A stretch of DNA of 64,000 nucleotides from Candidatus Auribacterota bacterium (GCA_026392035.1 JAPLCX010000085.1:1335-65334), one strand, 5' to 3'. Positions 14,985 through 36,044 are shown, counted from the first letter of the stretch. Numbers and translations are program-made. The notes: generated by a model from the sequence alone, not told the origin.

Positions 14985-15320
14985 TCACATTAGGTCTCCC
15001 AACGGCCCCAGGTTTATGTTGAGCTCCTCATCCTTGAGCCCAAAAATCCCTTTGAGCTCCTTTATCTTGTTCTCCAACTTCATCAGGGTCTCGCCAACCT
15101 GCTCAATCTGTTCGTCCGTCAGGCTGCCCCCTTCTATCCGCCGCAGCGCCTGTTTTTCAAGCAGCTTTCTGATCAATTCTACCAGCGTGAGCACCAGCTT
15201 CGCCAATCCCTTCTCCACGTTCTTTGGGTTCGCGTCAATTTTTTTGGGAAGGGCGTCCTGTATTTTATCAAGCTCGTTCATAAACAACTCAGGTGAATCA
15301 GTCTCGACTTTGCGCTTCAT
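14985..15320 (-). CDS. gvpK: Gas vesicle protein GvpK
   Basis: GLAKLVLTLVELIRKLLEKQALRR ... LNINLGPLG. Confidence 0.93.
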   Translation of the reverse strand: MKRKVETDSPELFMNELDKIQDALPKKIDANPKNVEKGLAKLVLTLVELIRKLLEKQALRRIEGGSLTDEQIEQVGETLMKLENKIKELKGIFGLKDEELNINLGPLGDLM

Positions 15321-15414
15321 GCAATACCTCACGTTAGCTTGCGCTAACTTAAATCCCAAATCCCAAAGTTATTGAAATTCCGAGGCTGCCAGTTAATCCC
15401 CCAGCCCAATTTTA

Positions 15415-16152
15415 TTAAAAGGGCGGATGAGGGGGGATTTTCACTCTCACAAAATTATACGGAGGCCAAGGGCCGCTGAATAAATATTTAAAATCACTGT
15501 GTTCTTTTTTAAAATGCTCAAACGCTTCCCGGAAATCTCCCGCCGCTCCTTTTTTTACAAGATAATTCGCGTCAAGAAGCAGATCGCAGCTTTTAAGCTT
15601 CTCCACCTTCTTTTCTGAAATGCAGTCTTTTAACACACTCTCCAGGGCAAGGATATGTTGTTCAGCTTCCTTTTCAAATGCCTTCTCTATTTCATGTTCC
15701 GCCAGCTTCTCCTTCATGTACCTTTTTGCCGGAGTGTCTCCCGACGCGCCTGACCCGGCCGTTGAACCCTTATGCGCGTGCGCGATGTTTTCTTTTATCA
15801 CTTCCCCCGGCCAGATAACCCTGACGCCGAATTCCACCTTGTCCCTGAGCCTGTTGATATTTTCCTTGAATTCACCGTAGTGTTTTTTAAGAATGCACAC
15901 AGCATCATCCCTTGTATTGAAGACCGTGTTGAATCTCATGGGCAGGACGACATAATTACCCATTTCTCTTTCCACCACCTCTTCGTGCCTGAGGACATCC
16001 GTTTTACCTGTATCCGTTATTCCCCTCCCTATTTCGCTCGAAATTAAACCGATATCGCGATGGGGAATATTATAGATAATCGCGCCATCCAGACCCTTTA
16101 TCCGGCCTTTGAGCTTATCACCGGAATCTATCACGCAATAGGTGTAGATCAC
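15415..16152 (-). CDS. GvpL/GvpF family protein
   Basis: YTYCVI, HEEVVE, VLPMRFNT, SGPWPPYNF; GTG start 16152. Confidence 0.9.
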   Translation of the reverse strand: MIYTYCVIDSGDKLKGRIKGLDGAIIYNIPHRDIGLISSEIGRGITDTGKTDVLRHEEVVEREMGNYVVLPMRFNTVFNTRDDAVCILKKHYGEFKENINRLRDKVEFGVRVIWPGEVIKENIAHAHKGSTAGSGASGDTPAKRYMKEKLAEHEIEKAFEKEAEQHILALESVLKDCISEKKVEKLKSCDLLLDANYLVKKGAAGDFREAFEHFKKEHSDFKYLFSGPWPPYNFVRVKIPPHPPF

Positions 16153-16155
16153 TTT

Positions 16156-16345
16156 AAATCCCAAATCCCAAACTCCAAATCCCAAATAAATCCCAAATCC
16201 CAAAATTTAATTGTCATTTGGCTTTTGTCATTCATCTGTCATTTGTCATTCTGCTGATTTGTCATTTGGCCTTTGTCATTCATTTGTCATTTGCCTGCCT
16301 GCCGGCAGGCAGGGATTTTTGTCATTTATTTGTCATTTGTCATTT
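16156..16345. repeat. AAATCCC heptamer array followed by TGTCATT array with a nested CCTGCCGGCAGG palindrome
   Basis: Visible 7-bp periodicity on both arms. Confidence 0.8.
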
Positions 16346-16346
16346 C

Positions 16347-16565
16347 CTATGTCGGCTCTTCCTGTCCCCCCGCAAACGGCGTCCCTCGCAGCTTCTCCAT
16401 GGTCTCGACCGAACTCAGCAACACCTTCAATCCCAGGTAAACAAGGTCCACATCAGCCACCGATATAACTATATCGCCGCTGATCACCACGCCCTTGTTC
16501 AACACCCGGTCGAGAACCTCGAGGAGCGTGACGTCCCTTGATTTTATTACGACTTTATCTACCAT
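16347..16565 (-). CDS. Minor GvpA-family protein (GvpJ/S/M-like)
   Basis: LLEVLDRVLNKGVVISGDIVISVADVDLVYLGLKVLLSSVET. Confidence 0.88.
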   Translation of the reverse strand: MVDKVVIKSRDVTLLEVLDRVLNKGVVISGDIVISVADVDLVYLGLKVLLSSVETMEKLRGTPFAGGQEEPT

Positions 16566-17639: not shown

Positions 17640-17663
17640 GACCGCACCTCCTCTCCATAAGGG

Positions 17664-17822
17664 AAATCCCAAATCCCAAACCCCAAATCCCAAAATTCAA
17701 ACCATTTGTCATTTTTTAGGACGTTGCCCCCTCCCCAAATCCCCCTCTGTCCCCCTTTTTCAAAGGGGGAGGAAATCCATCCCTCATTTCCCCCCTTTGT
17801 AAAGGGGGGTTGGGGGGGATTT
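17664..17822. repeat. Heptamer array plus CCCCCTTT..AAAGGGGG hairpins
   Basis: aaatcccaaatcccaaac..., then two hairpins of the G/C-tract type. Confidence 0.75.
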
Positions 17823-18045
17823 ACTTCCCTCTCGCCGCGTCCAATCGTTCCAGCAACTCCTTCTCCTGTCTGTTGTACTCCTCCTCATTTATCTCGTCCA
17901 GCTCGAACCTGAGCTGCAACTCCATCAGTTTCTCCTTTATCCTCCCCTCATCGGAGAACTCCTTCTGCGCGACCTCGTCGATCTTCCTCCCGAGCCAGAC
18001 AATCATCTTGAGAGGAGAGAGAAGTATATCGTCGATAAGGAACAT
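17821..18045 (-). CDS. gvpG: Gas vesicle protein GvpG
   Basis: DDILL.P...I.W....I...A..E..DE..I...L.ELQ...E..EI.EEEY...E.ELL.RL. Confidence 0.9.
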   Translation of the reverse strand: MFLIDDILLSPLKMIVWLGRKIDEVAQKEFSDEGRIKEKLMELQLRFELDEINEEEYNRQEKELLERLDAARGK

Positions 18046-18121
18046 ACCAAGACCACCTTGTTAATGACAAATGACAAATGCCAAAATCCAAATAAATGAC
18101 AAATGACAAAATCTAACTAGC

Positions 18122-18514
18122 TCAACCACTTTTTAGAGTCTTATTTATAATGCTGCTCAGGATAAGCAATAATTCTTCTGCCTCACCTAACTGCCAATCA
18201 AGTTCTCCTCTATCCTCCGGCTCCCTCACCAAATCCACCTTTTTTATCAAGCGCAGCCAGTGTCTTGACTCTCGCGCCTCCCTCCTGGCAATTCCCATTT
18301 TGTTCACAAAATCTTTCCTCGTAAGAGCTCCATCCGCTTCTTCCATATTCGCGCCGATCGAACCGCTTGCCCTGATTACCTGCTTCCCGTACTCTATCAA
18401 AGCCTGGCTTTTGTCCAACCTGCTTATCAGCCTCGCAACCCTCGCTGCAAACTCCAGGGCTCTATCATAAATGTCAAATTTTCTTCCTATTGTCATTTGT
18501 TTATCATTTGTCAT
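18122..18514 (-). CDS. Four-helix-bundle protein (TIGR02436/IVS-like) flanked by inverted heptamer arrays
   Basis: QVIRASGSIGANMEEA, F..K..IARREARES..WL; real start may be ATG 18496. Confidence 0.88.
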   Translation of the reverse strand: MTNDKQMTIGRKFDIYDRALEFAARVARLISRLDKSQALIEYGKQVIRASGSIGANMEEADGALTRKDFVNKMGIARREARESRHWLRLIKKVDLVREPEDRGELDWQLGEAEELLLILSSIINKTLKSG

Positions 18515-19332: not shown

Positions 19333-19433
19333 CCCGCCCCCATTTATTTGTTATTTGTCATTCGGATTTTGTCATTTATTTGACATTTGCCCACCTGCCG
19401 GCAGGCAGGGATTTTGACATTTGTCATTGAATT

Positions 19434-20205: not shown

Positions 20206-21249
20206 TCACTCCCTCAGTCTGACGAGGATCGCGCTTCTCCGTATATCGCTCGCCTTAAATGACAGGTTCTCACTGTCCCCTCCCTGCTCCGACGCCCGGG
20301 CGTACTCTTCGAGAATCTTCCACGCTCTGGTGAGATCATCAAACACCTTCTCCATATCGGTTCCGTCAGGATTAGTGTCCGGATGCGATGAGAACGCTAA
20401 TTTCTGACGAATCTTCTTGATATCCGCCCGTGTGGCCGTGTCGCCCAGACTAAAAATCCGCCTCGCCCAATTGACCTCGTCGCTCCCCAGTTTTTTCACC
20501 TCAAGCGTGAAGAAACTGTACGGGGGGAGCGGTCCGATGCGCCGAAAATTCAGCTTCTCCTCAAACCGGGCATTGAGCTTATCCACCTTCGCATCGAATA
20601 TCTCTCGATTCTCACGCGAGACGAGGAACGCGCTGTTCATCACCATCGTGTCATCCATGAGCTCGTGGTCCCTGAACCCACAGCTCACCGCTGTAAGCTC
20701 ATGGTGAATAGCCGCCGCGCACGCTTTTCTCTGTTCATCCAGCGCCTTTTTAACAATAAGCCCTACCGTCATCTGATCCTGGGGAGTCACCCCGTTTGAA
20801 CTCGCGAGGACCTTTGCCTTGATATCCTGAACCTCTTTCCTCCCCCCGGTCTCTTTAAGCAACGCGTTAAAATCACTCCAGGTCACCGCGACGTCAATCT
20901 CCACCTTATCGGCGATTTTCTTAAATACCTCCCGCGCCAACTCATACCCCCGGGCGAGAACATCCTGCGCTTCGCTCATGCTCTCCGCATAGGTCCCCAC
21001 TCTCATCGGGATAACCGCGAATCGCCGCATCACGCTCTCGAGCACCTGCTGATGATGTATTAGTCGCCGCGCGACTTCGTCTTTTATCAGCGCGTTGTAG
21101 TCGTACAGCTCGGAGTTGCTCACCACCGCAGCGATATCCATATGGGGGATGGTGTACACCTGTTCCCCTCCTTCAATCCCGGGCTGCTCGAAGTAAAGCT
21201 CCTTATCAGATTCAATAATCCCATAGATATATTTGCCCTCCCGCTTCAT
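20206..21249 (-). CDS. GvpL/GvpF protein fused to a C-terminal J-domain
   Basis: GvpF core ending GPLPPYSF, then IKK..QKLAFSSHPDTNP...F..L..AW.IL with an intact HPD. Confidence 0.85.
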   Translation of the reverse strand: MKREGKYIYGIIESDKELYFEQPGIEGGEQVYTIPHMDIAAVVSNSELYDYNALIKDEVARRLIHHQQVLESVMRRFAVIPMRVGTYAESMSEAQDVLARGYELAREVFKKIADKVEIDVAVTWSDFNALLKETGGRKEVQDIKAKVLASSNGVTPQDQMTVGLIVKKALDEQRKACAAAIHHELTAVSCGFRDHELMDDTMVMNSAFLVSRENREIFDAKVDKLNARFEEKLNFRRIGPLPPYSFFTLEVKKLGSDEVNWARRIFSLGDTATRADIKKIRQKLAFSSHPDTNPDGTDMEKVFDDLTRAWKILEEYARASEQGGDSENLSFKASDIRRSAILVRLRE

Positions 21250-21260
21250 GATACCATTCC

Positions 21261-23423
21261 TCAAGCCTTGTGGCCGGCCGGCGACCGCGAATTCCGCGCG
21301 CTCTCGACCAACTTCATCGCTTCTTCGAAATGCCTCTTCTCAATGGTGGGCGAGTCCTTCCCCTTCGGTTTTCGTTCGATAAACTCCCGTATGGCAATCA
21401 TCGCCGCCTTGCGGCATATAAGCTCGATATCAGACCCCGACTTGCCCCCGGTGTCCCTGGCCAGCTTCCTTATATCAATGTCCGGGGCGAGGGGTTTGTT
21501 TTTGACATGGATCTTGAATATCTTTCCCCGCGCCGCTTCGTCGGGGATCGGCAGCTCGAGGAGCAGATCAAATCTGCCGCTCCTGAGCAGCGCCGGGTCA
21601 ACAAGGTCCAGCCTGTTGGTCGCCCCCAGCACCAGCACGCCCTTGAGCTCCTCTATCCCGTCCATTTCCGTCAGAAACTGGCTTATCACCCGCTCCGTCA
21701 CATGGGCGTCAGTGGAACTCGACCCCCGGAGGGGCACAATGCTGTCGATCTCGTCAAAGAAAAGGATGGTGGGAGACGCCTGTTTCGCCTTCTTGAAGAT
21801 CTCCCGGATGCCCCGCTCGCTCTCCCCGACGTATTTTGATATGAGGGAGGGCCCTTTCACCGAGATGAAGTTCACGCCGCTCTCGTTTGCCACCGCCTTC
21901 GCGAGGAGGGTTTTCCCCGTCCCCGGGGCTCCGTACAGGAGGATTCCCTTCGGAGGCGAGGTGTTTGTCTTTTTAAATATCTCCGAGTACTTCAACGGCC
22001 ACTCAACCGCCTCTTTCAACTCCTCCTTGATAGTATCCAACCCGCCCACATCCTCCCATGTGACATCCGGCACCTCCACGAACACCTCTCGTATGGCCGA
22101 TGGTTCGACCTCCTTCATCGCTTCCAGGAAATCATCCATCGTCACCTCGAGCTTCATGAGCGTCTCGTAGGGGATATCGGCCATTTCAAAGTCTATCTTC
22201 GGGAGGATCTTCCGCAACGCCGACATCGCCGCTTCCCGCGCAAGCGCCTCGAGATCGGCGCCCACGAAACCGTGGGTGATCCCCGCGAGTTTCTCCACGC
22301 TCACGTCCTGCGCCAGGGGCATGCCCCTCGTGTGGATATGAAGTATCTCAAGCCTGCCGTTTTTGTCCGGGATGGGAATGGCTATCTCCCGGTCGAAGCG
22401 CCCCGGCCGCCGCAGCGCCGGATCCACTATATTGGGGACGTTGGTCGCGGCCATGACGACCACATGCCCCCGTGACTCCAATCCGTCCATGAGCGCCAGG
22501 AGCTGGGCCACCACCCGTCGCTCAACCTGTTTCTCAGCCCCCATATCTTCTCTCTTGGGAGCGATTGATTCGATCTCATCAATGAATATGATTGCGGGGG
22601 CATGCGCCTTGGCCTCCTCAAAGAGGGACCGGATGCGCCCTTCCGATTCCCCGTAAAATTTTCCCATGCACTCAGGCCCGCTCATGCTGGTAAAGTACGC
22701 GTCCGTCTCGTGCGCCACCGCGCGCGCGATCAATGTCTTGCCGCACCCCGGCGGCCCGTGGAGGAACACGCCCTTGGGGGCGTCGATGCCGAGCCGCTCG
22801 AATACCTCGGGATAGCGCAGCGGCAGCTCCACCATCTCCCTGATGCGCTGGACCTGCGTGCCGAGACCGCCGATATCCTCGTACGAGACCTTCGCGGGCC
22901 CCTTCTCCGGCGCCTCCTTGGTCTTGATCCGTATCATCGTGGCGGTGCTCAACACCACCACGCCATCGGGACTCGTGTCGAGCACCTTGAAATCGCACGA
23001 TCTCGTGCCGAAGAGCACCGCCCGTATCCGGTCGCCCACCATCACCGGAAGCCCGTCAATGAGCGACCCGATATACTTGCTGTCCTTCTCCCGGTCCGCC
23101 AGGCCCGACATGGTCAACGGGGAAAGCGTCACGCTCCGCGCGGGTTTCGATTCCACCTTATGTATCTTTACCCGGTCATCGAGCCCCACCTGCGCGTTCT
23201 CGCGTAAGATCCCGTCCATCTGAATGATCTTCATGCCGCGATCCGGGGCGTAACAGGGCATCGCCTTTGCCGGCGTCTTCCGTTTCCCTTCAACCTCGAT
23301 GATCTCCCCCACTTCAACGCCGAGCTTCTTCATGTCATCGGGATCTATTCTCGCGATAGACCTCCCGACATCCTTGGATAAAGCCTCTTTCACTTTTAGC
23401 ATCACATAACCTCCGTCATTCAC
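21261..23423 (-). CDS. CDC48/p97/VAT-family AAA+ ATPase
   Basis: Double-psi N domain; D1 [22 protein letters not shown]; D2 [18 protein letters not shown]. Confidence 0.93.
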
Positions 23424-23428
23424 CGATT

Positions 23429-23595
23429 TAAGTTAGCTCGCTAACTTAAATCCCAAATGACAAAGCACAAATGTCAAATGAATGACAAATACCAAATGAG
23501 AGATGATAAATACCAAAGCATAAATGACAAAAATTTAAGGTTTTGTCATTGGGATTTTGTCATTTCTTTGTCATTTGAAATTTGACATTTGTCAT
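23429..23595. repeat. Gene-less inverted heptamer-array element with terminal palindrome
   Basis: TAAGTTAGC-TC-GCTAACTTA, AAATGAC-type array, then TGTCATT-type array. Confidence 0.8.
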
Positions 23596-23649
23596 TACTT
23601 ACAATCCGTGCTTTTCTGAAATTCCCTGCCTGCCGTCAGGCAGGTTTCT

Positions 23650-24588
23650 CTACGCGCCAAACAGCAAATGCCTGAAATTATCCAACGACTCGATTCCCCT
23701 CACCTCCACGGGCTGCAACGGCACCAGGGTAATCTCAAATGCGCCGAACTTTTCCTTTATCATTTTGATGTATCTTTCCTGCCCCTTCCTCCGCTCCCTG
23801 CAGAAATCGCAGTCGCTCGACCTCACCACATTATTGACCACCATCTGTCTTACGTTGATTCCCGCCACGCGCAGGCTGTTCACCAGCCGTTCCGTTTCCG
23901 CGATCGCCATCTCCTCCGGAATGGTCACCACGATGAATTGGCAGCCTTGACCATCGCGGAGCAAACCCTCGATCCGCTTTACCACCTTCTTCATTTCGAC
24001 GAGGAACTCATCTGCCCTGTCAGGCTTCGCCCGCCCCGAAAAGGCTTCAACCACTCGATGATACTTCCACCGCATCTTCGCGACCACCTTGATCCAGTCA
24101 TCGAGAATGCCGGGCAGCGTCAACAACCTCAAGGCGTGTCCGGTGGGCGCGGTGTCAACGATATACTTGTCGAATTTCCCCTCCTCCACAAGGTCGAGGA
24201 TCGTTTTGAACCCCATCACCTCGTCTATACCCGGAATAGAGAGCGCGAACACGGAATCTATGTCGGCCTTGTCAAGATAGGTCGAGCTGTCGAGAATCCA
24301 TCGTATCTCATCCCCGTACTCCGCCTTGAACCGGCAGAGCGCCTTGTCCGCGCTTACTTCAATCGCGCTCAGGTTCTGAACACCGTCAATCCCGGTTACG
24401 GCATCCCCGATGCTCTGGCCGAAACAGTCGGAAAGGGAATGGGCGGGATCGGTGGAAATAAGCAATGTCTTGTATTGCCCGGCCAAATAAAAACCTGTGC
24501 TGGATGCACAGGTCGTTTTTCCCACCCCGCCCTTTCCGCCGAATAAAATCAGCTTTAGCGCGTCATTATTTAATCCTGTGAGTGGCAT
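23650..24588 (-). CDS. ArsA/GET3-family ATPase
   Basis: GKGGVGKTT, STDPAHSL, DTAPTGH. Confidence 0.93.
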   Translation of the reverse strand: MPLTGLNNDALKLILFGGKGGVGKTTCASSTGFYLAGQYKTLLISTDPAHSLSDCFGQSIGDAVTGIDGVQNLSAIEVSADKALCRFKAEYGDEIRWILDSSTYLDKADIDSVFALSIPGIDEVMGFKTILDLVEEGKFDKYIVDTAPTGHALRLLTLPGILDDWIKVVAKMRWKYHRVVEAFSGRAKPDRADEFLVEMKKVVKRIEGLLRDGQGCQFIVVTIPEEMAIAETERLVNSLRVAGINVRQMVVNNVVRSSDCDFCRERRKGQERYIKMIKEKFGAFEITLVPLQPVEVRGIESLDNFRHLLFGA

Positions 24589-25118
24589 TTCATCACTTTG
24601 ATTTCCAGCATGCCGTTATTGTATTTTGAGCGGAGCGTATCCGCTTTAACCTTTGCCGGGAGCAGGATCTCCTTGCGGTATTTCCTTTCGCCGGATTTGG
24701 CTGAAATATCCAGGATATCCCCTTTCAAATCAACCTTGATATCCTTTTCATTCACCCCCGGCATTTCGGCGTACACCCGGATCTCTTCCTTCTCGTCAAA
24801 CACGTCGGTGATCGGTTCCCGTTCCTCCTCAACCTTCGGCCCCTGGGGAGTTTTTTTGATCTTGTGACCGAACGGCTCCACCTTGAACGGCTTTCCTCCC
24901 GTGGCAGTCCGCACGGAAAAACCGAACACCCCCTTCATGCCTTCCTTGAGCTGGCTCAGATCTATCTCGCCTTCTTTTTTGATCTCACCGCCTGATTCTT
25001 TCAGGGATTCCGCCAGGTCCACCAATTTTTCAAGCCCTTTGAACAACCCCCCCAGGCTGAATTGCCCCATACCGATGTCAAAATCCGCCCCTTCCTTTTT
25101 CTTCTTTTCCTTTGCCAT
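24570..25118 (-). CDS. Hsp20/alpha-crystallin protein (GvpH-like), copy 1
   Basis: EPITDVFDE, AEMPGV, YNNGMLEI. Confidence 0.88.
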   Translation of the reverse strand: MAKEKKKKEGADFDIGMGQFSLGGLFKGLEKLVDLAESLKESGGEIKKEGEIDLSQLKEGMKGVFGFSVRTATGGKPFKVEPFGHKIKKTPQGPKVEEEREPITDVFDEKEEIRVYAEMPGVNEKDIKVDLKGDILDISAKSGERKYRKEILLPAKVKADTLRSKYNNGMLEIKVMKCHSQD

Positions 25119-25181
25119 GGTTCCCTCCTCTCTTTATGAAATCTTGCAAGGCCTCAGTTTTTGGATCAATCCCCATGTTCC

Positions 25182-25242
25182 GTAGGGGCGTGATTTATCG
25201 CGCCCGATATAATTTCTCGGGTTCGATGAATCGAACCCCTAC
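25182..25242. repeat. GTAG-type REP doublet
   Basis: GTAGGGGCGTGATTTATCGCGCCC and inverted GGGTTCGATGAATCGAACCCCTAC. Confidence 0.8.
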
Positions 25243-25321
25243 AGTACTGTATTAACAAGCCTTTTAGTGATGGATTTGAAATCTTGTCTTTTTTTCTTCT
25301 CTGTGATATTATTCTAACAGG

Positions 25322-25558
25322 GTGACAAATATGAAAACTCAAAAAATCGAAACAATTCGTAAAAAGTTCCATAGAGAATGGCTTTTGATCGCATTAGATA
25401 AAATGGATGAAAGAAGAACCATACCATTGACCGGCAGACTTCTGGCTCATAGTCCCCATCGGGATGAGGTTTATGCAAAGTCCTCTCGTTATAGAGGACA
25501 CGCATTGGTTGTTTATTCTGAGGATGGTTTCCCAAAAGGTTACGCTGCTGCTTTTTAA
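25322..25558 (+). CDS. Small hypothetical protein (DUF5678-like) upstream of the protease
   Basis: EWLLI...G.LLAHS..R pattern; stop lies 1 nt before the next ATG. Confidence 0.65.
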   Translation: MTNMKTQKIETIRKKFHREWLLIALDKMDERRTIPLTGRLLAHSPHRDEVYAKSSRYRGHALVVYSEDGFPKGYAAAF

Positions 25559-25559
25559 T

Positions 25560-25955
25560 ATGGCCAAACAATCCCTGCAAAAGATAATTCTTAAAGAAGG
25601 GATAATCTCTATTTATGTTGTGCTCAAAGGCCATATTACTTCGCGTACTATAAAAATGGCTCTGGATACAGGAGCCACTTATACTATGATACCCATAGAA
25701 ATCGCCAGGGATATAGGTTACGATCCCACTCTTACCAAAAGACGAATTGAAATTTCTACTGCTAATGGATTGATTTTCGTACCTCTGATTACAGTCCTGG
25801 AAATAAGTTTTATGGGGCTCACCCTGAAAAGTATCGATGTAATCTGTCATAACTTACCTTCTGAAAGTCCGGTGGAAGGCCTGCTCGGTCTCAACTTTTT
25901 AATCCACCTGCCTGCATTTATTGAGTTTTATCAGAAAATCCATTCTCATATCTAA
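25560..25955 (+). CDS. Retropepsin-like (clan AA) aspartyl protease
   Basis: ALDTGATYT, TANG, GLLGLNFL; ATG 25560. Confidence 0.88.
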   Translation: MAKQSLQKIILKEGIISIYVVLKGHITSRTIKMALDTGATYTMIPIEIARDIGYDPTLTKRRIEISTANGLIFVPLITVLEISFMGLTLKSIDVICHNLPSESPVEGLLGLNFLIHLPAFIEFYQKIHSHI

Positions 25956-25980
25956 AACCATCCGTCTGTTTCCAGCCTCA

Positions 25981-26058
25981 GGGTCACACCCTGAATACTA
26001 ACTATGAATGCTCGTCCAAAACCTGCTATGGTCTAAGTCAGTATTCAGGGTGTGACCC
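25981..26058. mobile_element. 78-bp REPIN/MITE-like element, copy 1
   Basis: 23-bp inverted arms (GGGTCACACCCTGAATACTAACT, 1 mismatch in the right arm) around a 32-bp spacer. Confidence 0.85.
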
Positions 26059-26071
26059 CGAATGTGATCAT

Positions 26072-26650
26072 TTAATCCTGTGAGTGGCATTTCATCACTT
26101 TGATTTCCAGCATGCCGTTATTGTATTTTGAGCGAAGCGTATCCGCTTTAACCTTTGCCGGAAGCAGGATCTCCTTGCGGTATTTCCTTTCGCCTGATTT
26201 GGCTGAAATATCCAGGATATCCCCTTTCAAATCAACCTTGATATCCTTTTCATTCACCCCCGGCATTTCGGCATACACCCGGATCTCTTCCTTCTCGTCA
26301 AACACGTCGGTGATCGGTTCGCGTTCCTCCTCGACCCTCGGCCCCTGGGGAGTTTTTTTGATCTTGTGGCCAAACGGCTCAACAGAGACCGGCCTGCCTC
26401 CGAGCGCGGTTTTTACAGAGAAACCAAAAACCCCCTTCATCCCTTCCTTCAGATGACTCAGGTCTATCTCGCCCTCTTTTTTGATTTCGCCGCCTGATTC
26501 TTTCAGGGCTTCCGCCAGGTCCACCAATTTCTCAAGCCCTTTGAACAACCCCCCCAGGCTGAATTGCCCCATACCGATGTCAAAATCCGCCCCTTCCTTT
26601 TTTCCGCCATGGGCGGCTCCGCCTCCGGCGGGCTTCTTCCCCTTTATCAT
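26072..26650 (-). CDS. Hsp20/alpha-crystallin protein (GvpH-like), copy 2
   Basis: Nearly identical to 24570-25118 apart from the N-terminus. Confidence 0.88.
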   Translation of the reverse strand: MIKGKKPAGGGAAHGGKKEGADFDIGMGQFSLGGLFKGLEKLVDLAEALKESGGEIKKEGEIDLSHLKEGMKGVFGFSVKTALGGRPVSVEPFGHKIKKTPQGPRVEEEREPITDVFDEKEEIRVYAEMPGVNEKDIKVDLKGDILDISAKSGERKYRKEILLPAKVKADTLRSKYNNGMLEIKVMKCHSQD

Positions 26651-26675
26651 GGCTCTCTCCTCCTCTCTGGCCTCA

Positions 26676-26753
26676 GGGTCACACCCTGAATACTAACTAC
26701 GAATGCTCATCCAAAACCTGTTATGATCTAAGTTAGTATTTAGGGTGTGACCC
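26676..26753. mobile_element. 78-bp REPIN/MITE-like element, copy 2
   Basis: Same arms; spacer differs from copy 1 at 4 of 32 positions. Confidence 0.85.
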
Positions 26754-26756
26754 CAC

Positions 26757-27107: not shown

Positions 27108-27404
27108 TTATTTTATCTTCGCCTCCAAACGCTCAAGCCTCTTCTTCAAAACCGCATTCTCCTTCTCGAACTCCTTTTCCCTCGCCTTCGTGGAAAGGTA
27201 CGCGTCCTGCTGCCACCAGTTGATCCCCATCTCCATGGCCTTATCAACGGAGGCGATCAGGAGCCTTATTTTGATATTGAGAAGGTCAATATCGGCGATC
27301 TGTATCTTGATGTCTCCGGCAATCACTATTCCCTTGTCCAGAACCCGTTCCAGTATATCCGCGAGATTGGTAGCCTGGATTGAATGCGCCAATTGCTCAA
27401 CCAT
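27108..27404 (-). CDS. gvpJ: Gas vesicle protein GvpJ
   Basis: NLADILERVLDKGIVIAGDI...IRLLIASVDKAMEMGINWW. Confidence 0.88.
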   Translation of the reverse strand: MVEQLAHSIQATNLADILERVLDKGIVIAGDIKIQIADIDLLNIKIRLLIASVDKAMEMGINWWQQDAYLSTKAREKEFEKENAVLKKRLERLEAKIK

Positions 27405-27728: not shown

Positions 27729-28106
27729 TTATCCTGCAACTACGCCTATCCCCCTGCATTTTGAACAGGGAAGACCGCATCCTTTCTCCCGGCCTCTTCC
27801 TTTGCAGGAAAGGCATACCTCAACCTTCTTGGTATGCACGTTTACAACGCCTTTTCCACGGCAGACAATACAGGCAAGGTCGGGATTCAGATGCGATTTC
27901 CCCGTACCATTACAATAAGCGCATATCACCGCAGGCGGTTGAATATTTATAGTCCCGACGCCTGAACAAACAAAACAGCTTGTGCTTTTCTTGGAAGGCA
28001 TAAACCCTCTTCCGCCACAAAATCCACATCTATAGACGTGTTTACTTAGGACTTCTCCTCTCCTGCCTGCCTTTTGACTTTTGAAATCAAAGGTTTTCCA
28101 CATCAT
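27729..28106 (-). CDS. Stand-alone DnaJ-type zinc-finger protein
   Basis: Six CxxCxGxG repeats. Confidence 0.85.
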   Translation of the reverse strand: MMWKTFDFKSQKAGRRGEVLSKHVYRCGFCGGRGFMPSKKSTSCFVCSGVGTINIQPPAVICAYCNGTGKSHLNPDLACIVCRGKGVVNVHTKKVEVCLSCKGRGREKGCGLPCSKCRGIGVVAG

Positions 28107-28696: not shown

Positions 28697-29668
28697 CTAT
28701 ACTACAGAGGTTTCTTTCTCGGATTTCTGTCCAATCTTCTCTGCGCTCCTGGCCTTGCCAAGTTCCTTTTCCACAAGATCTCTGACTACTTCTTTCACCC
28801 TGGCTTGATTCGTCCTTGAGCCAACCCGGCTTGTCTCAGATGCCAGGATATCCTGACACATCTTCAGGAACCCATCTGAGTTGGAAGGAGTCATATTCTG
28901 GACTTTAAGCGTTTTTGCAATCATAATACAGCCGCGGATGGTTGGAGCGAATTCGCACTTTCCCGATTCCCTCAAGCCCCTGACAATATTAACTACCTTC
29001 TCGGCATGGTGTTTTGAGAGCTTGGATTTCGCCTGGGTTATTGCCAGCTCTGTCTCATAGTCAAAGTGCTCCAGGTCCATGGTAATCATTCTATCCCTTA
29101 GCGCATCCTGACTCCTGTGTACCCCGGCATATTCCTCAGGGTTGGAGGTAAAAACAGCGGTAAAATCAGGATCAACCCTTAAATATGGTTCTTCTCCACC
29201 TCTTCCCACCGGCAAATCCATCATCTTCTCCTGAAGGATGGAGAGGAGAATATTATTAGCTTCCGGGCGCGACCGGGTGAATTCGTCATAGATCAGCGTA
29301 AATCCGTACTTACAGGCAACGGTCAGCCGGTTATCCACCCATCTCTTTATCATATCCTCTTCTACCTTCAAAACCCTGGATACAAAGCGGTCAACCACCT
29401 TTCTGATTCGATAGCCATACTCGCCACCGACTAAATCAGAGGTGGTAAACTCTTCATCTCCATGAATCATCACCACCGGCCGTCCTATTTTACTCGCGAT
29501 ATGCATAGCCAACGTTGTCTTGCCGGTGCCGGATACCCCCCTGAAGTGAACCGGAAAGCCGGCCTTAATATAGGAAAGGCTCCTATCGGTAACATCCTTG
29601 ATATACTTGGTTTCCACAAAGTCCGGCAGAGGACTTGGCTCCAATACTGTGGTCATCTCATCAACCAT
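28697..29668 (-). CDS. gvpN: Gas vesicle AAA+ ATPase GvpN
   Basis: HFRGVSGTGKTTLA, YDEFTRS.PEANN.LL, TSNPEEYAGVH..QDAL.DR. Confidence 0.96.
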   Translation of the reverse strand: MVDEMTTVLEPSPLPDFVETKYIKDVTDRSLSYIKAGFPVHFRGVSGTGKTTLAMHIASKIGRPVVMIHGDEEFTTSDLVGGEYGYRIRKVVDRFVSRVLKVEEDMIKRWVDNRLTVACKYGFTLIYDEFTRSRPEANNILLSILQEKMMDLPVGRGGEEPYLRVDPDFTAVFTSNPEEYAGVHRSQDALRDRMITMDLEHFDYETELAITQAKSKLSKHHAEKVVNIVRGLRESGKCEFAPTIRGCIMIAKTLKVQNMTPSNSDGFLKMCQDILASETSRVGSRTNQARVKEVVRDLVEKELGKARSAEKIGQKSEKETSVV

Positions 29669-29674
29669 TTTATA

Positions 29675-30073
29675 TCACCCCTTTTCTGTTTGTCTGCCTG
29701 CCCGCCGAAGCCCTGGCGCAGGCAGGGAATTCGATTTCTTGCTTCTTAGAGTCTCATTCATTTTGTTCCAGGTTCTGCTTGCTTCAGCCAAATCTGCTTT
29801 TATTTCCTGCTCTTTCTTCTTAAAGTCTTTCCTCAGGGCATTGACATTTTTGATTAGCTCATCTCTCTTCCTTTGTAAATATGCTTTTTGCTCTTTAGCC
29901 ATTTCCTGATGAAACTTCCTGGAATCAGCTAAAAACTTCCTGGCATTATCTTGAACAGCGGCAGCTTGTTTCTTCAGCTCTCTGATGCCGCTCTTTCTAT
30001 CTTCGTGACCTGTTATAATATTTTCACAGATAGATTTCATGTCGCCTGATACATTCCCATGGACCAGCCTCAT
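29675..30073 (-). CDS. Helical GvpC-like protein (short paralogue)
   Basis: Related N-terminal I.E.II...E.R...I.EL motif and amphipathic helix; ATGA overlap with the upstream stop. Confidence 0.5.
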   Translation of the reverse strand: MRLVHGNVSGDMKSICENIITGHEDRKSGIRELKKQAAAVQDNARKFLADSRKFHQEMAKEQKAYLQRKRDELIKNVNALRKDFKKKEQEIKADLAEASRTWNKMNETLRSKKSNSLPAPGLRRAGRQTEKG

Positions 30074-30390
30074 TTGCGAACAACCCCTTTGCCCCCGCAT
30101 TTGATACAAGGTAACCCACTATCTATCTCTGCGCCAGTACCTTTACATTTAGGGCACTCTTCGGCAGCGCCTTTAACTGTGACCATACCTTTGCCATCAC
30201 ATACAGTGCAGGTAACCCGGGCATTATGAGGATAGACACCGGTTGCGTTACAAAAAGCGCATTTAATCGCCGGCTCCACAACCTCAACCTTACCTGTGCC
30301 TCCGCATACCTGACAGGTGGCAAGCTCGGATAGCAGATTAAACGGGTCTATACCTTTTCCTTTACAAAAAGCGCATCTTATTTTGCCCAA
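30070..30390 (-). CDS. Stand-alone DnaJ-type zinc-finger protein
   Basis: Six CxxCxGxG-type repeats. Confidence 0.85.
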   Translation of the reverse strand: MGKIRCAFCKGKGIDPFNLLSELATCQVCGGTGKVEVVEPAIKCAFCNATGVYPHNARVTCTVCDGKGMVTVKGAAEECPKCKGTGAEIDSGLPCIKCGGKGVVRK

Positions 30391-30414
30391 TTTCCACCTC
30401 CCCTCACCCTGGCC

Positions 30415-30795
30415 TTCCCCCCATCGTCTCCCCCTTTGGAAAAGGGGGTTAGGGGGGATTTTCCCCCTTCCGCCAATCCCCGGCTAAATCCCCCCTGCCC
30501 CCCTTTGCTAAAGGGGGGGGAATTGGAGGGCCTTCGCCACCTTCATTGCCTTCTCCCCCCGTTCCCCCTTTTGAAAAAGGGGGCTATGGGCACGGCCCCC
30601 TCTTTGGAAGATTTGCTCTCACCCTGTTCCCCCCTTTGAAAAGGGAACTATGAGGGCGGATCCCTCTTTGGCAGATCTGCTTTCACCCCGTTCCCCCCTT
30701 TGTTAAAGGGGGGGAGAATTGGAGGGCCTTCGCCACCTTCATTGCCTTCTCCCCTCGTTCCCCCCTTTGGAAAAGGGGGGTTAGGGGGGATTTGA
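30415..30795. repeat. Cluster of CCCCCTTT-N2-4-AAAGGGGG hairpins with an internal duplication
   Basis: About eight hairpins; GGAGGGCCTTCGCCACCTTCATTGCCTTCTCCCC appears twice (~30523 and ~30721). Confidence 0.85.
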
Positions 30796-30858
30796 GAAAT
30801 CTCCTCCACCACCGCCGCCTGCCGGTCCTTCAGACAGGCTTCCCAGTCAGGGGCGAGT

Positions 30859-31443
30859 TTATCCTCTCTTCTTTGGTCTTCCTCTTTTCTTTTTCGGCTT
30901 CGCGACAGCCTCTTCAACAGTCTTTACCCCAGCCCTGGCTTCGACCCCGATAGGCTTGCCGCCTCTTCTCTTTGCCATGGCAGCGGACATCGCCCACCAA
31001 TTTGCCGCCATCCTGCCGTTCTCATCCGCTAACCCCTTCAACATCTTCCTGGTGCCATTCACTAAATCCGCCGCAAACTTGGCAAGATCCTTCCTTTGTT
31101 CCTCGCTCATATCAGCGTGGGCGTCGGAAAACTCTTTCAGCTTGTTTCTGACGTGCGTCTCGATATCTTTAGTGTTCTTCGCGAGACTCTTTCTGAGGTC
31201 GTCGGTCATTTCCTTGTGATCTTTCTGAAACCCGCCAAGGAGATTTCCGACATTCTTGGTCAGATCTCCCACGAAGCCCCCCAGAAATTGAGCCTGTTCC
31301 GCGCTCATCTTCTTCCTATCGGACGTAAAGCCATTCAGCGTCTCATGAACATCGCCCACAAGTTGCCCGAGTGACTTTACCCTGAGATCATACGAGGATA
31401 TGATATCCTCAGTGATCCTCTTTATGCCATCTGCTATTCCCAT
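30859..31443 (-). CDS. GvpC-like 33-aa repeat protein
   Basis: Three exact 33-aa repeats starting FTSDRKKM, FQKDHKEM and FSDAHADM; basic tail KKRGRPKK. Confidence 0.65.
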   Translation of the reverse strand: MGIADGIKRITEDIISSYDLRVKSLGQLVGDVHETLNGFTSDRKKMSAEQAQFLGGFVGDLTKNVGNLLGGFQKDHKEMTDDLRKSLAKNTKDIETHVRNKLKEFSDAHADMSEEQRKDLAKFAADLVNGTRKMLKGLADENGRMAANWWAMSAAMAKRRGGKPIGVEARAGVKTVEEAVAKPKKKRGRPKKRG

Positions 31444-31466: not shown

Positions 31467-33376
31467 GGTACTGTCAAAATTTTTATCTTAAATATTGCCT
31501 AACTCACTAGAGTTAAGCATGTTGCTGCAAAATTAGCTTCCTCCCCCTATTTTCAGGGGTTTTTACCCTCTATTTCACCCCCAGGAGTTATCCACATGAG
31601 CCCGAGGCCGAGCGTTTCTGCAGAGCTCGGCTCGGCGAGGGTCCCGCCACGGCGGGATGGGTAACTCCGTGCTCTGAAATCCTTTTTCGCGTATAATTAC
31701 CGCATTGCCCTCTCTACAAAAGGAGCATGTCACCCATGAAAAAGCTCGATCGCTTTATCATCTGGATCTGCAGCAAGTTTAACCGCAAAGAAATCGAATT
31801 CATTGTCGCAGGCCTTGTCAGAATCCTCGTCGATCGTAACCCGGAAGTTAAACCGCGCGATGATTTCAAAGAGAAACATCCAAACTACCGCAACTTCTCC
31901 GTCGATCCCTTGCCGCCAATATCAGAACCCCTTAAAAAAAAGATCGAACTTGTTCTTGGAAAGAACTTCTTGCGCGATATCCCAAAGAACACGGCAAACC
32001 GTTAGAACCTGTTTCCCATCGATCTCAGAAACTTCTCGTCCCAAAACACATCAAATGCCCCTGCTGCAACGCCCCACATCGCTACCTCTACTACAACGAT
32101 GGCACTCGTCGTTCTCAAATCCGTTGCAAAGTCTGTTACACCCTCTCACAAATTGGCAAACACAAACGGCAACCCAAAACAGCCTTCTGGTGCCCCTACT
32201 GTCACAATGCGCTCTACCTCTGGAAACAAAAACCTCTCTTTACCATCTATAAGTGCTGCAACGATAACTGCCCCCGCTATCTCGAGAACCTCAACAAGCT
32301 CAACCCAAGCGAGAAAAAAGAACGTAGAAAGCGCGTATCTCAGTTTAAACTCTGCTACCAATACCGCGTCTATCACTTCAAAGATCAACAACTCGCTCCC
32401 TCTTCACCTATGCAACCGACAGTCGATTTAAGCCGCATCCATGCCCATCCCAGCCTCGTCGGCCTTATCCTTACCTTCCACATATCCTTTGCTCTCTCCG
32501 CCCGCAAAACCGCGCTCATGCTCAGACAGGTGTTCAATATCCGCATCTCTTATCAGACCGTCCTCAACTACTCCGAAGCCGCAGCCTATTGGTGCCACCG
32601 CTTCAATCGCAACTTCAAAGGCTCTATTGATACGATAGCTGCCATTGATGAAACATACATCAAGGTCGCGGGCAAATGGGCATTTACCTTCCTGGCTGTC
32701 GCCATCCGCTCACTTAAAATTATTGCCTATCATGTCGCGCATGATCGCTCTGTTCTTCCCGCCGTCTGCGCCCTTAAAGAAGCCATCAGAACCGCTCACC
32801 CCATGCAATCTCTTACTCTCGTCAGCGATGGCAACCCTTCTTATGGCGATGCCACCCATTTCGTCAACTCCTCCAAAAACGGCCACCCTCTCAAACACCG
32901 CAAGGTAATCGGCCTGCAAAACCTTGATCAGGAGTCAGAAACCTATCGCCCTTTCAAACAAATAATCGAACGCCTCATGCGTACTTACAAGTCCCATACC
33001 CGCTCAGCGTGTGGCTTTGACTCATTCTACGGCGCCATAATCCTCACCACTCTCGTCGTTACTCACTATAACTTCTTAAGACCGCACAGCAGCCTAGGCT
33101 ACAAAACACCTATCGTCATCGATGATCTTCAGTCTATACCCACCATCCAGGATCAGTGGTGTAAGATCATCGACATATCGATGAAGCTTGCTGCGTAGCT
33201 GATCCTCTTGTCAAAGAGCTTTACTCAACCTCAGGATAACTCTGCCTCTTACCTGCTTATTACCGCTCTCGTCCCGTACTTATCGCCTCGCAAAACCTCT
33301 GTTCCCCATACCTCCGCTATCGCTTACCCCTATATCTCGTCACTTCCTAACCTTTCATAGAACTTTTGACACTACC
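31467..33376 (+). mobile_element. IS6-family-like insertion sequence (1910 bp)
   Basis: TIRs GGTACTGTCAAAATTT and (reverse complement) GGTAGTGTCAAAAGTT; 8-bp TSD TTGTTCAC at 31459-31466 and 33377-33384. Confidence 0.9.
31727..33198 (+). CDS. DDE transposase with zinc-finger N-half, split by a -1 frameshift at an A8G tract
   Basis: Frame 2 from 31727; frame 1 is open from ~31939 to 33198 (CPCC, CKVC, CPYC; IDETYIK, SDG, IER). Confidence 0.85.
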
Positions 33377-33422: not shown

Positions 33423-34163
33423 TTATCCTTTCTTACCCTTCCTCCTGCCTCCTTTCTTCCCAGGCTTTTTAACTGCATCTTCAACTGTGGTTACCTTCTC
33501 TCCAGCTTCAACCTTAACCAGCTTAGCTCCTTTTCTTTTGTCCATCGTAGCTGCCATGTCTTGCCAATTAGCAGCCATTTTCTCTCTTTCATCTGAAAAA
33601 CCACCTAGCAGTTTCTTTGTTTCACTGACAATACCAGCTACATACTTGGCCAACTCTTTCTTGAGCTCTTCGCTCATATCCGCATGCGCATCAGAGAATT
33701 CCTTGAGCTTGTTTTTAACGTGGGTCTCGATGTCCTTGATACCTTTTCTAATGTCCCCCATCATAGCCTTAAAGCCCTTAATTCTATCTGCTTCTCCTTT
33801 CTCAAGCCCTTCCTCAAGATTGTCAGCCATCTCTTTATGGGCCTTCGCTATTGCTTTCATCATGGTGCCAACATTTTTAGTGAGGTCTTTTACGAAGTCA
33901 GTCAAACTTTCTGATAACTCCTCACTCATTTCTTTATGCTCTTTCTGGAATCTTTTAAGCGTGCTTTCCACGTTTTTCGACAGATCCTCGACGAAATCGG
34001 CTAATGACTTAGCCTGTTCCGCGCTCATTCTCTTCCTGTCTTGCGTGAAGCCTTTTAAGGTCTTTTGGGTATCAGCCACCAGCTCACCGAGCGCCTTTAC
34101 CCGCAGATCATACGAGCCGATGATATCCTCGCCCAACCTTTTCATGCTATCTGCAATACCCAT
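33423..34163 (-). CDS. GvpC-like 33-aa repeat protein (long paralogue)
   Basis: 33-aa repeats FTQDRKRM, FQKEHKEM, IAKAHKEM, FSDAHADM; paralogue of 30859-31443. Confidence 0.65.
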   Translation of the reverse strand: MGIADSMKRLGEDIIGSYDLRVKALGELVADTQKTLKGFTQDRKRMSAEQAKSLADFVEDLSKNVESTLKRFQKEHKEMSEELSESLTDFVKDLTKNVGTMMKAIAKAHKEMADNLEEGLEKGEADRIKGFKAMMGDIRKGIKDIETHVKNKLKEFSDAHADMSEELKKELAKYVAGIVSETKKLLGGFSDEREKMAANWQDMAATMDKRKGAKLVKVEAGEKVTTVEDAVKKPGKKGGRRKGKKG

Positions 34164-34430: not shown

Positions 34431-35114
34431 TTATTGTAATCCCGAGGCAGCAAAAGCATCTCCGGAACAAGTCCCCTGTGCTACCGAAGCGTACTCACTC
34501 CGATCACTGATCTGATCAGTCTCTTTCTGATACCGGAGCTGAATTTCCTGAACCGCCATCTTTAAATCTTTCACCTGAAGTTTATCACCCTTGGCCAGGA
34601 GACCCCTCAGGGATGCGAGAAGTTCCTGCTGTTCCTTCTCAAATTCATACAGCGCGCCCACAACCTCGTTCTTTCTCCGCTCTGTTTTTTCAAGAATCCG
34701 CCGTATCGTCTCCTGGAATTCTTTAACCCGCCGCGACTCCCCCCTGCCCAGAGAGCTCCTCAATTCATCAAGCTGTTCTCTCAACATCCTCGCCATCTCT
34801 CTCTGTTCGTCGAAATAACCATCCAGCAGATCGCGCACTTCCCTCTCCCGTTCCTCCTGCGCTGACACCACGCCATTCATCATCCCGTCAAAATCCCTCT
34901 TTCTTAGAGAACCGTTCTGGGCGAGAAGTTCGCGCAATTCCCCATTGGCATATTCGCGCTCCCTGTGTACATCAAGAAAAGATTCCTCAAAACCCTTGAG
35001 AAGCTGCTGCGTGGTGTCGCAAAGGGATTCAAACTCCCGTATGCGGGTGTCATAAGAGCCGAGCGCACTATCAATTATCGCTCGTACGTCACTGGATAGG
35101 GCTGCTTTTTTCAT
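34431..35114 (-). CDS. Coiled-coil protein, distant GvpC-like paralogue
   Basis: Directly downstream of gvpA; shares SYD.R...L with the repeat proteins. Confidence 0.55.
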   Translation of the reverse strand: MKKAALSSDVRAIIDSALGSYDTRIREFESLCDTTQQLLKGFEESFLDVHREREYANGELRELLAQNGSLRKRDFDGMMNGVVSAQEEREREVRDLLDGYFDEQREMARMLREQLDELRSSLGRGESRRVKEFQETIRRILEKTERRKNEVVGALYEFEKEQQELLASLRGLLAKGDKLQVKDLKMAVQEIQLRYQKETDQISDRSEYASVAQGTCSGDAFAASGLQ

Positions 35115-35212: not shown

Positions 35213-35419
35213 TTACGCCGCTGACGCGGTAAGGCCGATCGCCTCGGCATACTTCAGGTACGTCTCGACTGATGCAACCACGACCCTGGCTTCAACAGCG
35301 AGCAGCTCAATACCCACCAACGACACTCTCACCCAGGCATCAACCACGATGCCCTTATCCAGTATCCGGTCGATAACCTCAACCAGGCTGGATGAACCGA
35401 TCGTTTTCTCTACTGCCAT
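35213..35419 (-). CDS. gvpA: Major gas vesicle protein GvpA (copy 2)
   Basis: [55 protein letters not shown]. Confidence 0.98.
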
Positions 35420-36028: not shown

Positions 36029-36044
36029 AGCAATAATCATGCCA
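36029..36044 (-). promoter_or_regulatory. sigma54 (-24/-12) promoter of the gvp operon
   Basis: Minus strand TGGCATGATTATTGCT. Confidence 0.75.

Follow-up and report, generated by a model that had tools for sequence, protein, structure and literature searches.

A gas-vesicle gene cluster with a CDC48 and J-domain GvpF core, Hsp20 and a Get3-like ATPase: a plausible proteostasis module from comparative genomics

Why would a gas-vesicle gene cluster encode an unfoldase, a Get3-like ATPase and a small heat-shock protein (sHsp)? The question is raised by a stretch of 64,000 nucleotides (nt) from a Candidatus Auribacterota bacterium (GCA_026392035.1 JAPLCX010000085.1:1335-65334; the window, in what follows), in which hsp20, an arsA-like gene, cdc48 and a gvpF gene fused to a J-domain (gvpF::J) stand between gvpN and the gvpF, gvpG and gvpK genes, all the cluster genes relevant here lying on the minus strand. 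In the absence of assembly factors, the shell protein GvpA aggregates and has proteotoxic effects (PMC12848028). GvpF binds GvpA and has been proposed as its chaperone, and GvpN is required for the elongation and enlargement of vesicles (PMC9501494, PMC11445434). Current models of the problem addressed here, that is, how GvpA is kept soluble, inserted into the shell and removed after collapse, rest on GvpF, GvpG and GvpN only. We propose that the cluster represents a widespread, chaperone-rich type of gvp cluster with its own proteostasis line for the aggregation-prone shell proteins GvpA, GvpJ and GvpM, a reading that we hold to be, on balance, probable. The rival explanations (turnover, a stress cassette, positioning) are all graded below it. 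Comparative genomics reveals a cluster type built on a CDC48-GvpF::J core that nearly always includes Hsp20, and to which a Get3-like ATPase is an add-on.

The gene order recurs in many other genomes. With one genome per species, 36 loci carry a CDC48 that is at least 62% identical, and 33 of them have the order GvpA..GvpN..Hsp20-(ArsA)-CDC48-GvpF::J..GvpG..GvpK; the contigs of the remaining three are too short or cut off. Looked up from the ArsA side, three of three homologues (a 90%-identical relative, one from Omnitrophota and one from Nitrospirota) lie in an hsp20-arsA-cdc48-gvpF::J arrangement within gvp clusters. The arrangement is not due to chance, because the order recurs in more than 30 independent genomes. 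Every member of the CDC48 clade with enough flanking DNA is found within a syntenic gvp cluster. These members carry at least 15 phylum-level labels, including Omnitrophota, Nitrospirota, Nitrospinota, Latescibacteria, Cloacimonadota, Atribacteria, Ignavibacteriales, Planctomycetes, Victivallales, Aminicenantes, Sumerlaeota, Desulfobacterota and Actinomycetota, and the nearest relative (96%) is labelled Chlamydiota. The module proteins and GvpN show correlated pairwise distances (r 0.55-0.88). CDC48 is conserved as much as GvpN, which is 67-88% identical among the gvp-linked bacterial loci with a full-length gvpN. The original prediction, which was made from the window sequence, had placed the module inside a gvp operon, and this position proves to be fixed over many phyla.

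The cdc48 open reading frame (ORF; 21261-23423, minus strand) starts at the ATG at 23402, and the resulting 713-residue product (21261-23402) matches the protein record. Pfam and TIGR01243 (931 bits, cut-off 803) identify a CDC48/VAT-type double-ring AAA+ ATPase with the domains CDC48_N (PF02359, 97.6 bits) and CDC48_2 (PF02933, 33.6 bits), both above their cut-offs, and two AAA domains. The closest structure is that of Thermoplasma VAT (5g4g, 734 bits). Walker A and B motifs, sensor-1 and arginine fingers are intact in both D1 and D2, and the pore loops are aromatic as in VAT (KFYG in D1, at least 90% conserved in the clade, and KYVG in D2). Judged by these motifs the protein looks like a fully active VAT-type unfoldase, which supports the original prediction on this point.

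The aromatic pore loops of the two rings point to complete threading of a polypeptide, which would also suit regulated turnover: Cdc48 would unfold GvpA, collapsed vesicles or a gvp regulator for a protease encoded elsewhere, and would thereby serve mainly vesicle removal and buoyancy control and not vesicle construction. Cdc48/VAT commonly acts upstream of proteases, and collapsed gas vesicles cannot be re-inflated, hence a disposal route is plausible. However, the C-terminal HbYX motif, with which archaeal Cdc48 docks on the 20S proteasome, is missing from the gvp-linked proteins. The CDC48 of the window ends in ...SPAGHKA, and none of 34 gvp-linked sequences has a penultimate Tyr or Phe, whereas many archaeal relatives in the set have the motif and end in AYG, YMG, YYR or EFL. 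No protease gene is conserved in the syntenic clusters either, and the neighbouring holdases and J-domain fit refolding and reuse better than degradation. The window does contain an ORF for a retropepsin-like aspartyl protease of 163 residues between two hsp20 copies, on the opposite strand (25464-25955, plus strand; PF13975, 54 bits), but it is specific to the window and was not seen at the corresponding position in the syntenic relatives looked up. We consider turnover to be unlikely.

The arsA-like gene (23650-24588, minus strand) encodes a single-domain ATPase of 312 residues of the ArsA/Get3/TRC40 type (PF02374, 267 bits), with the P-loop GGKGGVGKTT, the switch II motif DTAPTGH and a CXXC motif (CDFC, C270/C273). 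P-loop, switch II and both cysteines are invariant across 36 homologues. The protein passes the GET3/ArsA/TRC40 model TIGR00345 (260 bits, cut-off 135) and fails the arsenical-pump models TIGR04291 (130 bits versus 650) and NF041417 (173 versus 800). Among structures in the PDB, Get3 of M. jannaschii scores 203 bits, the M. thermautotrophicus protein 186, eukaryotic Get3 proteins about 140-170 and E. coli ArsA 138. In the alignment with M. jannaschii Get3, the CDFC motif coincides with the zinc-binding CXXC of that protein, which is likewise CDFC, and it is predicted to be a dimer-bridging zinc motif of the Get3 type. An AlphaFold2 model has M. thermautotrophicus TRC40 as its best fold match (TM-score 0.80), and the top 50 matches are all Get3/TRC40, with complexes of Get3 and a transmembrane domain (TMD) also among the best. 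Two long helices (residues 149-184 and 191-211) form an alpha-helical subdomain on the NTPase core of the model. From sequence and predicted fold we assign the protein to the Get3/TRC40-type ATPases and not to the arsenite-pump ATPases. The single-domain form is abundant, with 7,959 proteins at E <= 1e-10; the best 120 of these 7,959 are 66-95% identical.

With this assignment, a role in arsenic resistance, in which the ATPase would energise an arsenite pump and its location among gvp genes would be incidental, is effectively refuted. The Pfam family name, ArsA_ATPase, speaks for such a role, but the single domain and the low score with the pump equivalog do not, and the protein is nearer to Get3 than to E. 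coli ArsA. Furthermore, hsp20 and cdc48 always flank arsA in gvp clusters. A Pfam scan of the 20 larger flanking ORFs of the 64 kb found no ArsB, Acr3, ArsC, ArsD or ArsR, and the syntenic relatives looked up likewise contain no arsB/acr3, arsD, arsR or arsC. Both the absence of pump genes nearby, noted at the outset, and the separation from arsenic-resistance ATPases, on which the delivery role had been made to depend, thus hold.

A positioning ATPase that spaces or segregates gas vesicles in the manner of ParA, MinD or McdA, independently of CDC48, has a certain appeal, since ArsA/Get3 shares the SIMIBI P-loop class with ParA/MinD and ParA-like ATPases position carboxysomes. Weak matches to ParA, MinD and CbiA were indeed obtained, but the ParA/MinD models stay far below their cut-offs. 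The CXXC motif, the helical subdomain and the uniformly Get3/TRC40 fold matches point elsewhere, and no gene for a partner adaptor is evident. We regard positioning as highly improbable.

The first hsp20 copy (24570-25118, minus strand; 182 residues) has an alpha-crystallin domain (PF00011, 40.5 bits, cut-off 20.8; best PDB match 4rzk, 68 bits). Its best family model is 'archaeal Hsp20' (NF041800), where it scores 133.5 bits, below the cut-off of 140. The N-terminal region of about 95 residues is strongly conserved over 30 loci. The C-terminal IXI tail is absent: the protein ends ...GMLEIKVMKCHSQD, five residues past the last strand, where the clade consensus stops too. In typical family members, with Hsp16.5 as the comparison, the IXI extension builds large sHsp oligomers. 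By its sequence the Hsp20 of the window is therefore classed as an atypical sHsp. It also matches PF17886 ("HSP20-like domain found in ArsA"; 29.9 bits) above threshold, which hints that ArsA-Hsp20 fusions exist elsewhere.

A second copy of hsp20 lies upstream (26072-26650, minus strand; 192 residues) and is a duplicate of the first, with 92.7% DNA identity over 531 nt (region 24562-26754). It retains the arsA start codon and about eight codons and is then broken by an 85-nt element with 26-nt terminal inverted repeats that resembles a miniature inverted-repeat transposable element (MITE). A second copy of this element is located upstream of hsp20 copy 2 (26670-26754; repeat families D1 and D8).

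A physical tie between a chaperone domain and a Gvp protein is found directly downstream of cdc48. The 347-residue product of gvpF::J (20206-21249, minus strand) is a GvpF/L protein (PF06386, 192 bits) fused to a C-terminal J-domain (residues 272-320; PF00226, 31.4 bits, cut-off 27.8) with an HPD motif. The HPD is invariant in 30 of the 30 aligned relatives of the bacterial clade that reach this region, and it is absent from the GvpF of Firmicutes. Two stand-alone proteins with DnaJ-type CXXCXGXG zinc fingers are encoded as well, one of 106 residues encoded upstream of gvpN (30070-30390, minus strand; PF00684, 47.5 bits) and one of 125 residues (27729-28106, minus strand; PF00684, 35 bits). 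Both occur in most related gvp clusters. Taken together, the zinc-finger proteins and the J-domain on GvpF resemble a DnaJ whose parts are distributed over separate proteins. The canonical gas-vesicle AAA+ ATPase GvpN (28697-29668, minus strand; 323 residues; PF07728, 68.8 bits) is present in addition to the CDC48 module, as had been stated. The presumed clients are the two GvpA proteins of 68 residues each (35213-35419 and 35524-35730, minus strand; PF00741), which are the most hydrophobic proteins of the cluster (grand average of hydropathy 0.84-0.87; maximum 19-residue hydropathy 1.87, in a beta-hairpin). The gene calls agree with the NCBI contig (72 kb) in an exact-sequence look-up (CDC48 713, ArsA 312, Hsp20 182 and GvpF::J 347 residues). 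The original inventory had the coordinates of hsp20, arsA and cdc48 exactly right, but overlooked the J-domain of GvpF, both zinc-finger proteins and the duplicate of hsp20.

Could Hsp20, CDC48 and ArsA simply be a general heat-shock or proteotoxic-stress cassette that travels with a gvp island and does not recognise Gvp proteins specifically? Hsp20 and CDC48 are a general archaeal heat-shock pair, both being targets of the heat-shock regulators Phr/HSR1 (PMC5852551). The expression of gas vesicles is itself proteotoxic (PMC12848028). In four archaeal loci (L041, L047, L056 and L064) hsp20 lies about 100-480 nt upstream of cdc48, and the fetched flanks contain no gvp genes. The gvp region of the window (14000-50000) has a GC content of 45-51%, compared with 56-62% in the flanks, and carries genes for an IS200-type transposase (46433-47449), an IS6-type transposase and a Fic/DOC protein (37115-38236). 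The lower GC content, the transposase genes and the Fic/DOC gene fit a horizontally acquired island. On the other side stand the fixed place of the module between gvpN and gvpF over at least 15 phylum-level labels, the presence of gvp genes wherever flanks of the CDC48 clade are available, and the J-domain that is physically fused to a Gvp protein. The N domain of CDC48 is moreover clade-specific: it is 62% conserved in the clade versus 36% to the archaeal proteins, whereas the rings are less differentiated (84% versus 67% for D1, 72% versus 57% for D2). We therefore judge a generic stress cassette to be quite unlikely, and favour the dedicated proteostasis line.

Where the CDC48 came from was addressed with a neighbour-joining tree with midpoint rooting. 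The gvp-linked bacterial CDC48s are monophyletic (bootstrap 100/100) and have a pair of archaeal sequences as their sister (72/100), which, on the question of archaeal versus bacterial origin posed with the original prediction, points to an archaeal affinity. The crown of the clade, which is mostly ArsA-bearing, is supported by 98/100. Branches inside the clade do not track the phylum labels, a pattern compatible with horizontal transfer of the cluster as a whole.

Outside this clade, CDC48s of Firmicutes that are 54-59% identical (L042-L044, L050 and L062) also lie among gvp genes, with a GvpF that has no J-domain. They sit on separate branches of the tree, and one locus (L050) has the order gvpA-gvpN-hsp20-cdc48-gvpF. 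It may be that gvp clusters took up CDC48 repeatedly, or at a very early stage. At one locus of Bathyarchaeota (L045) the Hsp20-CDC48 pair directly adjoins a gvp operon of divergent orientation. At another, of Methanosarcinales (L063), hsp20 and cdc48 overlap by 4 nt, and gvpA and gvpN are found about 8 kb downstream of CDC48. The archaeal neighbourhoods suggest that Hsp20-Cdc48 is an ancient gene pair. A deltaproteobacterial CDC48 that is 63% identical (L051:1-3774) has lost its N-terminus at the contig end and is followed by a PAS histidine kinase gene, not gvpF; the locus represents either the margin of a cluster that has been rearranged or a relative without gvp linkage. Two apparent fusions, Hsp20::CDC48 in L014 and CDC48::GvpF in L038, were rejected, as in-frame stop codons are present at both junctions. 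For the Desulfobacterium vacuolatum cluster (FWXY01000008:1268-24724), which has been expressed experimentally and yields vesicles in E. coli, a search with a CDC48 from Desulfobacteraceae gave only names of metagenome-assembled genomes (MAGs) among the 120 matches listed.

The module had been described as translationally coupled. This is borne out for two junctions: hsp20 and arsA overlap by 19 nt, with the overlapping ATG as the sole in-frame start of arsA, and 11 nt separate the cdc48 stop from the gvpF::J ATG, with GAGGA across the stop codon. It does not apply to arsA and cdc48, which are separated by a 247-nt spacer (23403-23649, minus strand; read from the sequence, repeat families D2-D4), and cdc48 has its own Shine-Dalgarno sequence, GGAGG, 7 nt upstream of the ATG at 23402. 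Therefore, hsp20, arsA and cdc48 are not one coupled unit here. Because the arsA-cdc48 distance in relatives is mostly -17 to about 100 nt, with a maximum of about 210 nt, we interpret the long spacer as a local expansion. It contains the palindrome CCTGCCTGACGGCAGGCAGG right behind the arsA stop, AATGACA/TTTGTCA heptamer repeats in inverted arrangement, and a sigma70-like -35/-10 match (23530-23503, 10 of 12 positions) that is the best such match of the region.

Heptamer tandems (TTTGTCA or TTTGGGA and their complements) also fill other spacers of the cluster (16150-16340, 17660-17712, 18060-18110 and 19353-19415, besides 23446-23640), and a palindrome CCTGCC..GGCAGG recurs in gvp intergenic spacers. 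These repeats resemble the cyanobacterial heptamer repeats of the short tandemly repeated repetitive (STRR) type and repetitive extragenic palindromic (REP) elements. Some spurious N-terminal extensions of ORFs (LGFGVWDLGF...) are translated spacer repeats.

We hypothesize that newly made GvpA would be held by GvpF, the zinc-finger holdases and the Hsp20 holdase, and that the J-domain of GvpF would recruit host DnaK to the GvpA complex. The Get3-like dimer would then use its ATP-controlled groove to shield the hydrophobic core of GvpA-family proteins and pass them on for insertion, the step at which GvpN acts. The Cdc48 hexamer, probably together with Hsp20 as in the archaeal heat-shock pair, would pull apart GvpA that is misassembled, aggregated or left in collapsed shells, and its product would be reused rather than fed to a protease, making the process independent of the proteasome. 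In evolutionary terms, a gvp cluster would have captured the archaeal Hsp20-Cdc48 stress pair, and GvpF would have gained its J-domain; later, ArsA would have been inserted between hsp20 and cdc48, and the whole cluster would have spread horizontally among anaerobic bacterial phyla.

A bolder version would assign a complete insertion and extraction cycle to this protein-only organelle. The Get3 homologue would deliver GvpA-family subunits, handed off by GvpF::J and DnaK, and the archaeal-derived Cdc48, with Hsp20 as an adaptor, would extract them from mis-built or collapsed shells for remodelling and recycling. A GET-like and Cdc48-like cycle of this kind is otherwise known for lipid membranes only. 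We consider this specific version rather unlikely. The delivery and disassembly line for GvpA put forward in the original prediction is partly supported, in that a Get3-like ATPase, a VAT-type unfoldase and GvpN are all encoded; a literal analogy with the GET pathway is unsupported, for the reasons given below.

Several observations weigh against a dedicated proteostasis line. That GvpA is the client of the module is deduced only from the gene neighbourhood. A hydropathy scan of the cluster proteins found no terminal TMD-like segment of the kind expected for a tail-anchored client, and the cluster encodes no Get1/2-like receptor. Since GvpA is not a tail-anchored helix and has no terminal TMD, and a Get1/2-like protein is not encoded in the cluster, literal GET-like delivery is unsupported. 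The structural model of the ArsA-like protein is of moderate confidence (mean predicted local distance difference test score, pLDDT, 71.7). The tree is a neighbour-joining tree rooted at its midpoint, and the archaeal sister position of the CDC48 clade reaches no more than 72/100; the taxon labels are taken from MAG bins and are possibly wrong. In the window the cluster is interrupted by an insertion sequence (IS) element, MITEs, the duplicated hsp20 and the 247-nt spacer. To our knowledge, the gas-vesicle systems of Halobacterium, Anabaena, B. megaterium and Serratia function without the module.

The composition of the module in relatives also counts against a strict requirement for all of its parts. 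Of the 33 gvp-linked loci, 11 have no ArsA; these comprise all basal branches (Desulfobacterota, L028 and L035) and, inside the crown, Atribacteria, some Victivallales, L025 and L014. In the branch of Desulfatiglandales, a gvpF stands where hsp20 would be. Consequently, neither ArsA nor Hsp20 is essential to the shared mechanism. From these comparisons we derive CDC48-GvpF::J as the universal core, nearly always preceded by Hsp20, and regard Hsp20-CDC48-GvpF::J as the evolutionary core of the module. As basal branches and some crown loci are without it, ArsA is best explained as a later, dispensable insertion between hsp20 and cdc48.

The surroundings of the module are those of a gas-vesicle cluster. 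In the 5' to 3' direction of the minus strand, the order begins with an NtrC-type sigma54 activator (39099-40505), the two gvpA genes, coiled-coil proteins (34431-35114, 33423-34163 and 30859-31443), the first zinc-finger protein and gvpN. Small conserved proteins, the second zinc-finger protein, a gvpJ/M-like (gvpJ/A-like) gene (27108-27404), hsp20 copies 2 and 1, the arsA-like gene, cdc48 and gvpF::J follow. The order ends with two gvpF/L genes, gvpG (17821-18045), a weak GvpO-like gene, a gvpF/L gene, a gvpA/J-like gene (16347-16565), another gvpF/L gene, gvpK (14985-15359) and a PAS histidine kinase gene, so that the cluster contains four gvpF/L genes besides gvpF::J. A sigma54-type -24/-12 match, TGGCATGATTATTGCT (36029-36044, minus strand), with one mismatch, lies about 300 nt upstream of the first gvpA gene and downstream of the NtrC-family activator and histidine kinases; in the relatives, a kinase, a response regulator and a sigma54 activator likewise precede gvpA. 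It is the sole good site, with none found within the module in the -24/-12 scan, and the window as a whole has no more sigma54 matches than expected by chance. An Rfam scan of the whole window at the gathering threshold gave no match.

The IS6/IS240-type DDE transposase gene (32410-33198, plus strand) is inserted within the gvp cluster and separates two paralogous coiled-coil genes (33423-34163 and 30859-31443), whose phasin- or apolipoprotein-like products are candidates for GvpC-like proteins of the outer shell. Repeats of 50-100 nt based on the hairpin CCCCCTTTGGAAAAGGGGG are present at 30412-30800, between zinc-finger and coiled-coil genes, and at 17772-17821. Between gvpG and a gvpF gene lies a gene for a 23S rRNA intervening-sequence protein (18122-18514, minus strand; PF05635, 67 bits), which is missing at the corresponding place in the relatives L001 and L003.

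The clusters found across phyla amount to a natural experiment, as they supply a candidate machine for each step that GvpA has to pass: an unfoldase, a Get3-like ATPase, an sHsp, a J-domain GvpF and putative zinc-finger holdases. Most gas-vesicle clusters fail or prove toxic in E. coli (PMC10344784, PMC12848028), and chaperones encoded in the clusters themselves are candidates for better acoustic reporter genes and for heterologous expression of gas vesicles. If the insertion and extraction cycle is true, a bacterial Cdc48 would for the first time have a defined cellular role outside Actinobacteria, and Get3 would have a non-membrane client. For the AAA+ and GET fields, the gain would be a Cdc48 that is bacterial and horizontally mobile, together with such a Get3 homologue. 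We found no description of CDC48, J-domain-fused GvpF or DnaJ zinc-finger proteins in gvp clusters in the gas-vesicle papers searched, which does not prove that none exists. Public annotation pipelines name the genes correctly ("CDC48 family AAA ATPase", "ArsA family ATPase").

The presence of ArsA and Hsp20 in a gvp operon is real, but not a new observation. As early as 2010, Castillo and Saier described gvp clusters with ArsA homologues and Hsp20, and proposed that the ATPase energises biogenesis and that Hsp20 acts as a chaperone (PMC2963123). Their clusters resemble the window in that an ArsA-family ATPase and Hsp20 are found alongside GvpN inside gvp clusters lacking ars genes. However, the ArsAs they describe are two-domain proteins of about 600-640 residues, and they give two domains as the rule for gvp-linked ArsAs, which by that description sets them apart from the single-domain, 312-residue protein of the window with its Get3-type CXXC, and the CDC48, the J-domain GvpF and the zinc-finger proteins were not reported there (PMC2963123).

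The archaeal Hsp20 and Cdc48 pair of the Phr/HSR1 regulon is similar in its combination of an sHsp with a Cdc48/VAT ATPase, which share their regulation or lie next to each other. The pair in the window differs in being bacterial and part of a gvp operon, in the loss of HbYX and the divergence of the N domain, and in its Get3-like and J-domain partners. With the GET/TRC40 pathway the module shares an ATPase with the P-loop, switch II, CXXC and helical subdomain fold of Get3, and the eukaryotic relay from Hsp70 to Get3 is paralleled by the Hsp70-recruiting J-domain encoded next door. Unlike in that pathway, no tail-anchored client, Get1/2-like receptor or lipid membrane target is evident, and the presumed client, GvpA, is rich in beta-hairpins. 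The logic also recalls the sHsp-DnaK/DnaJ-ClpB system, in which clients aggregate together with a holdase, Hsp70 is directed by a J-protein, and polypeptides are threaded out of the aggregates by an AAA+ protein with two rings. Here, in contrast, the motor is of the Cdc48/VAT type and not ClpB, the J-domain is carried by the client-specific adaptor GvpF, and the parts are encoded with the genes of a single organelle. Finally, GvpN is, like CDC48, an ATPase encoded in gvp clusters, but it is a single-ring protein of the MoxR/AAA_5 type without the pore-loop architecture of an unfoldase, whereas CDC48 is an unrelated double-ring unfoldase.

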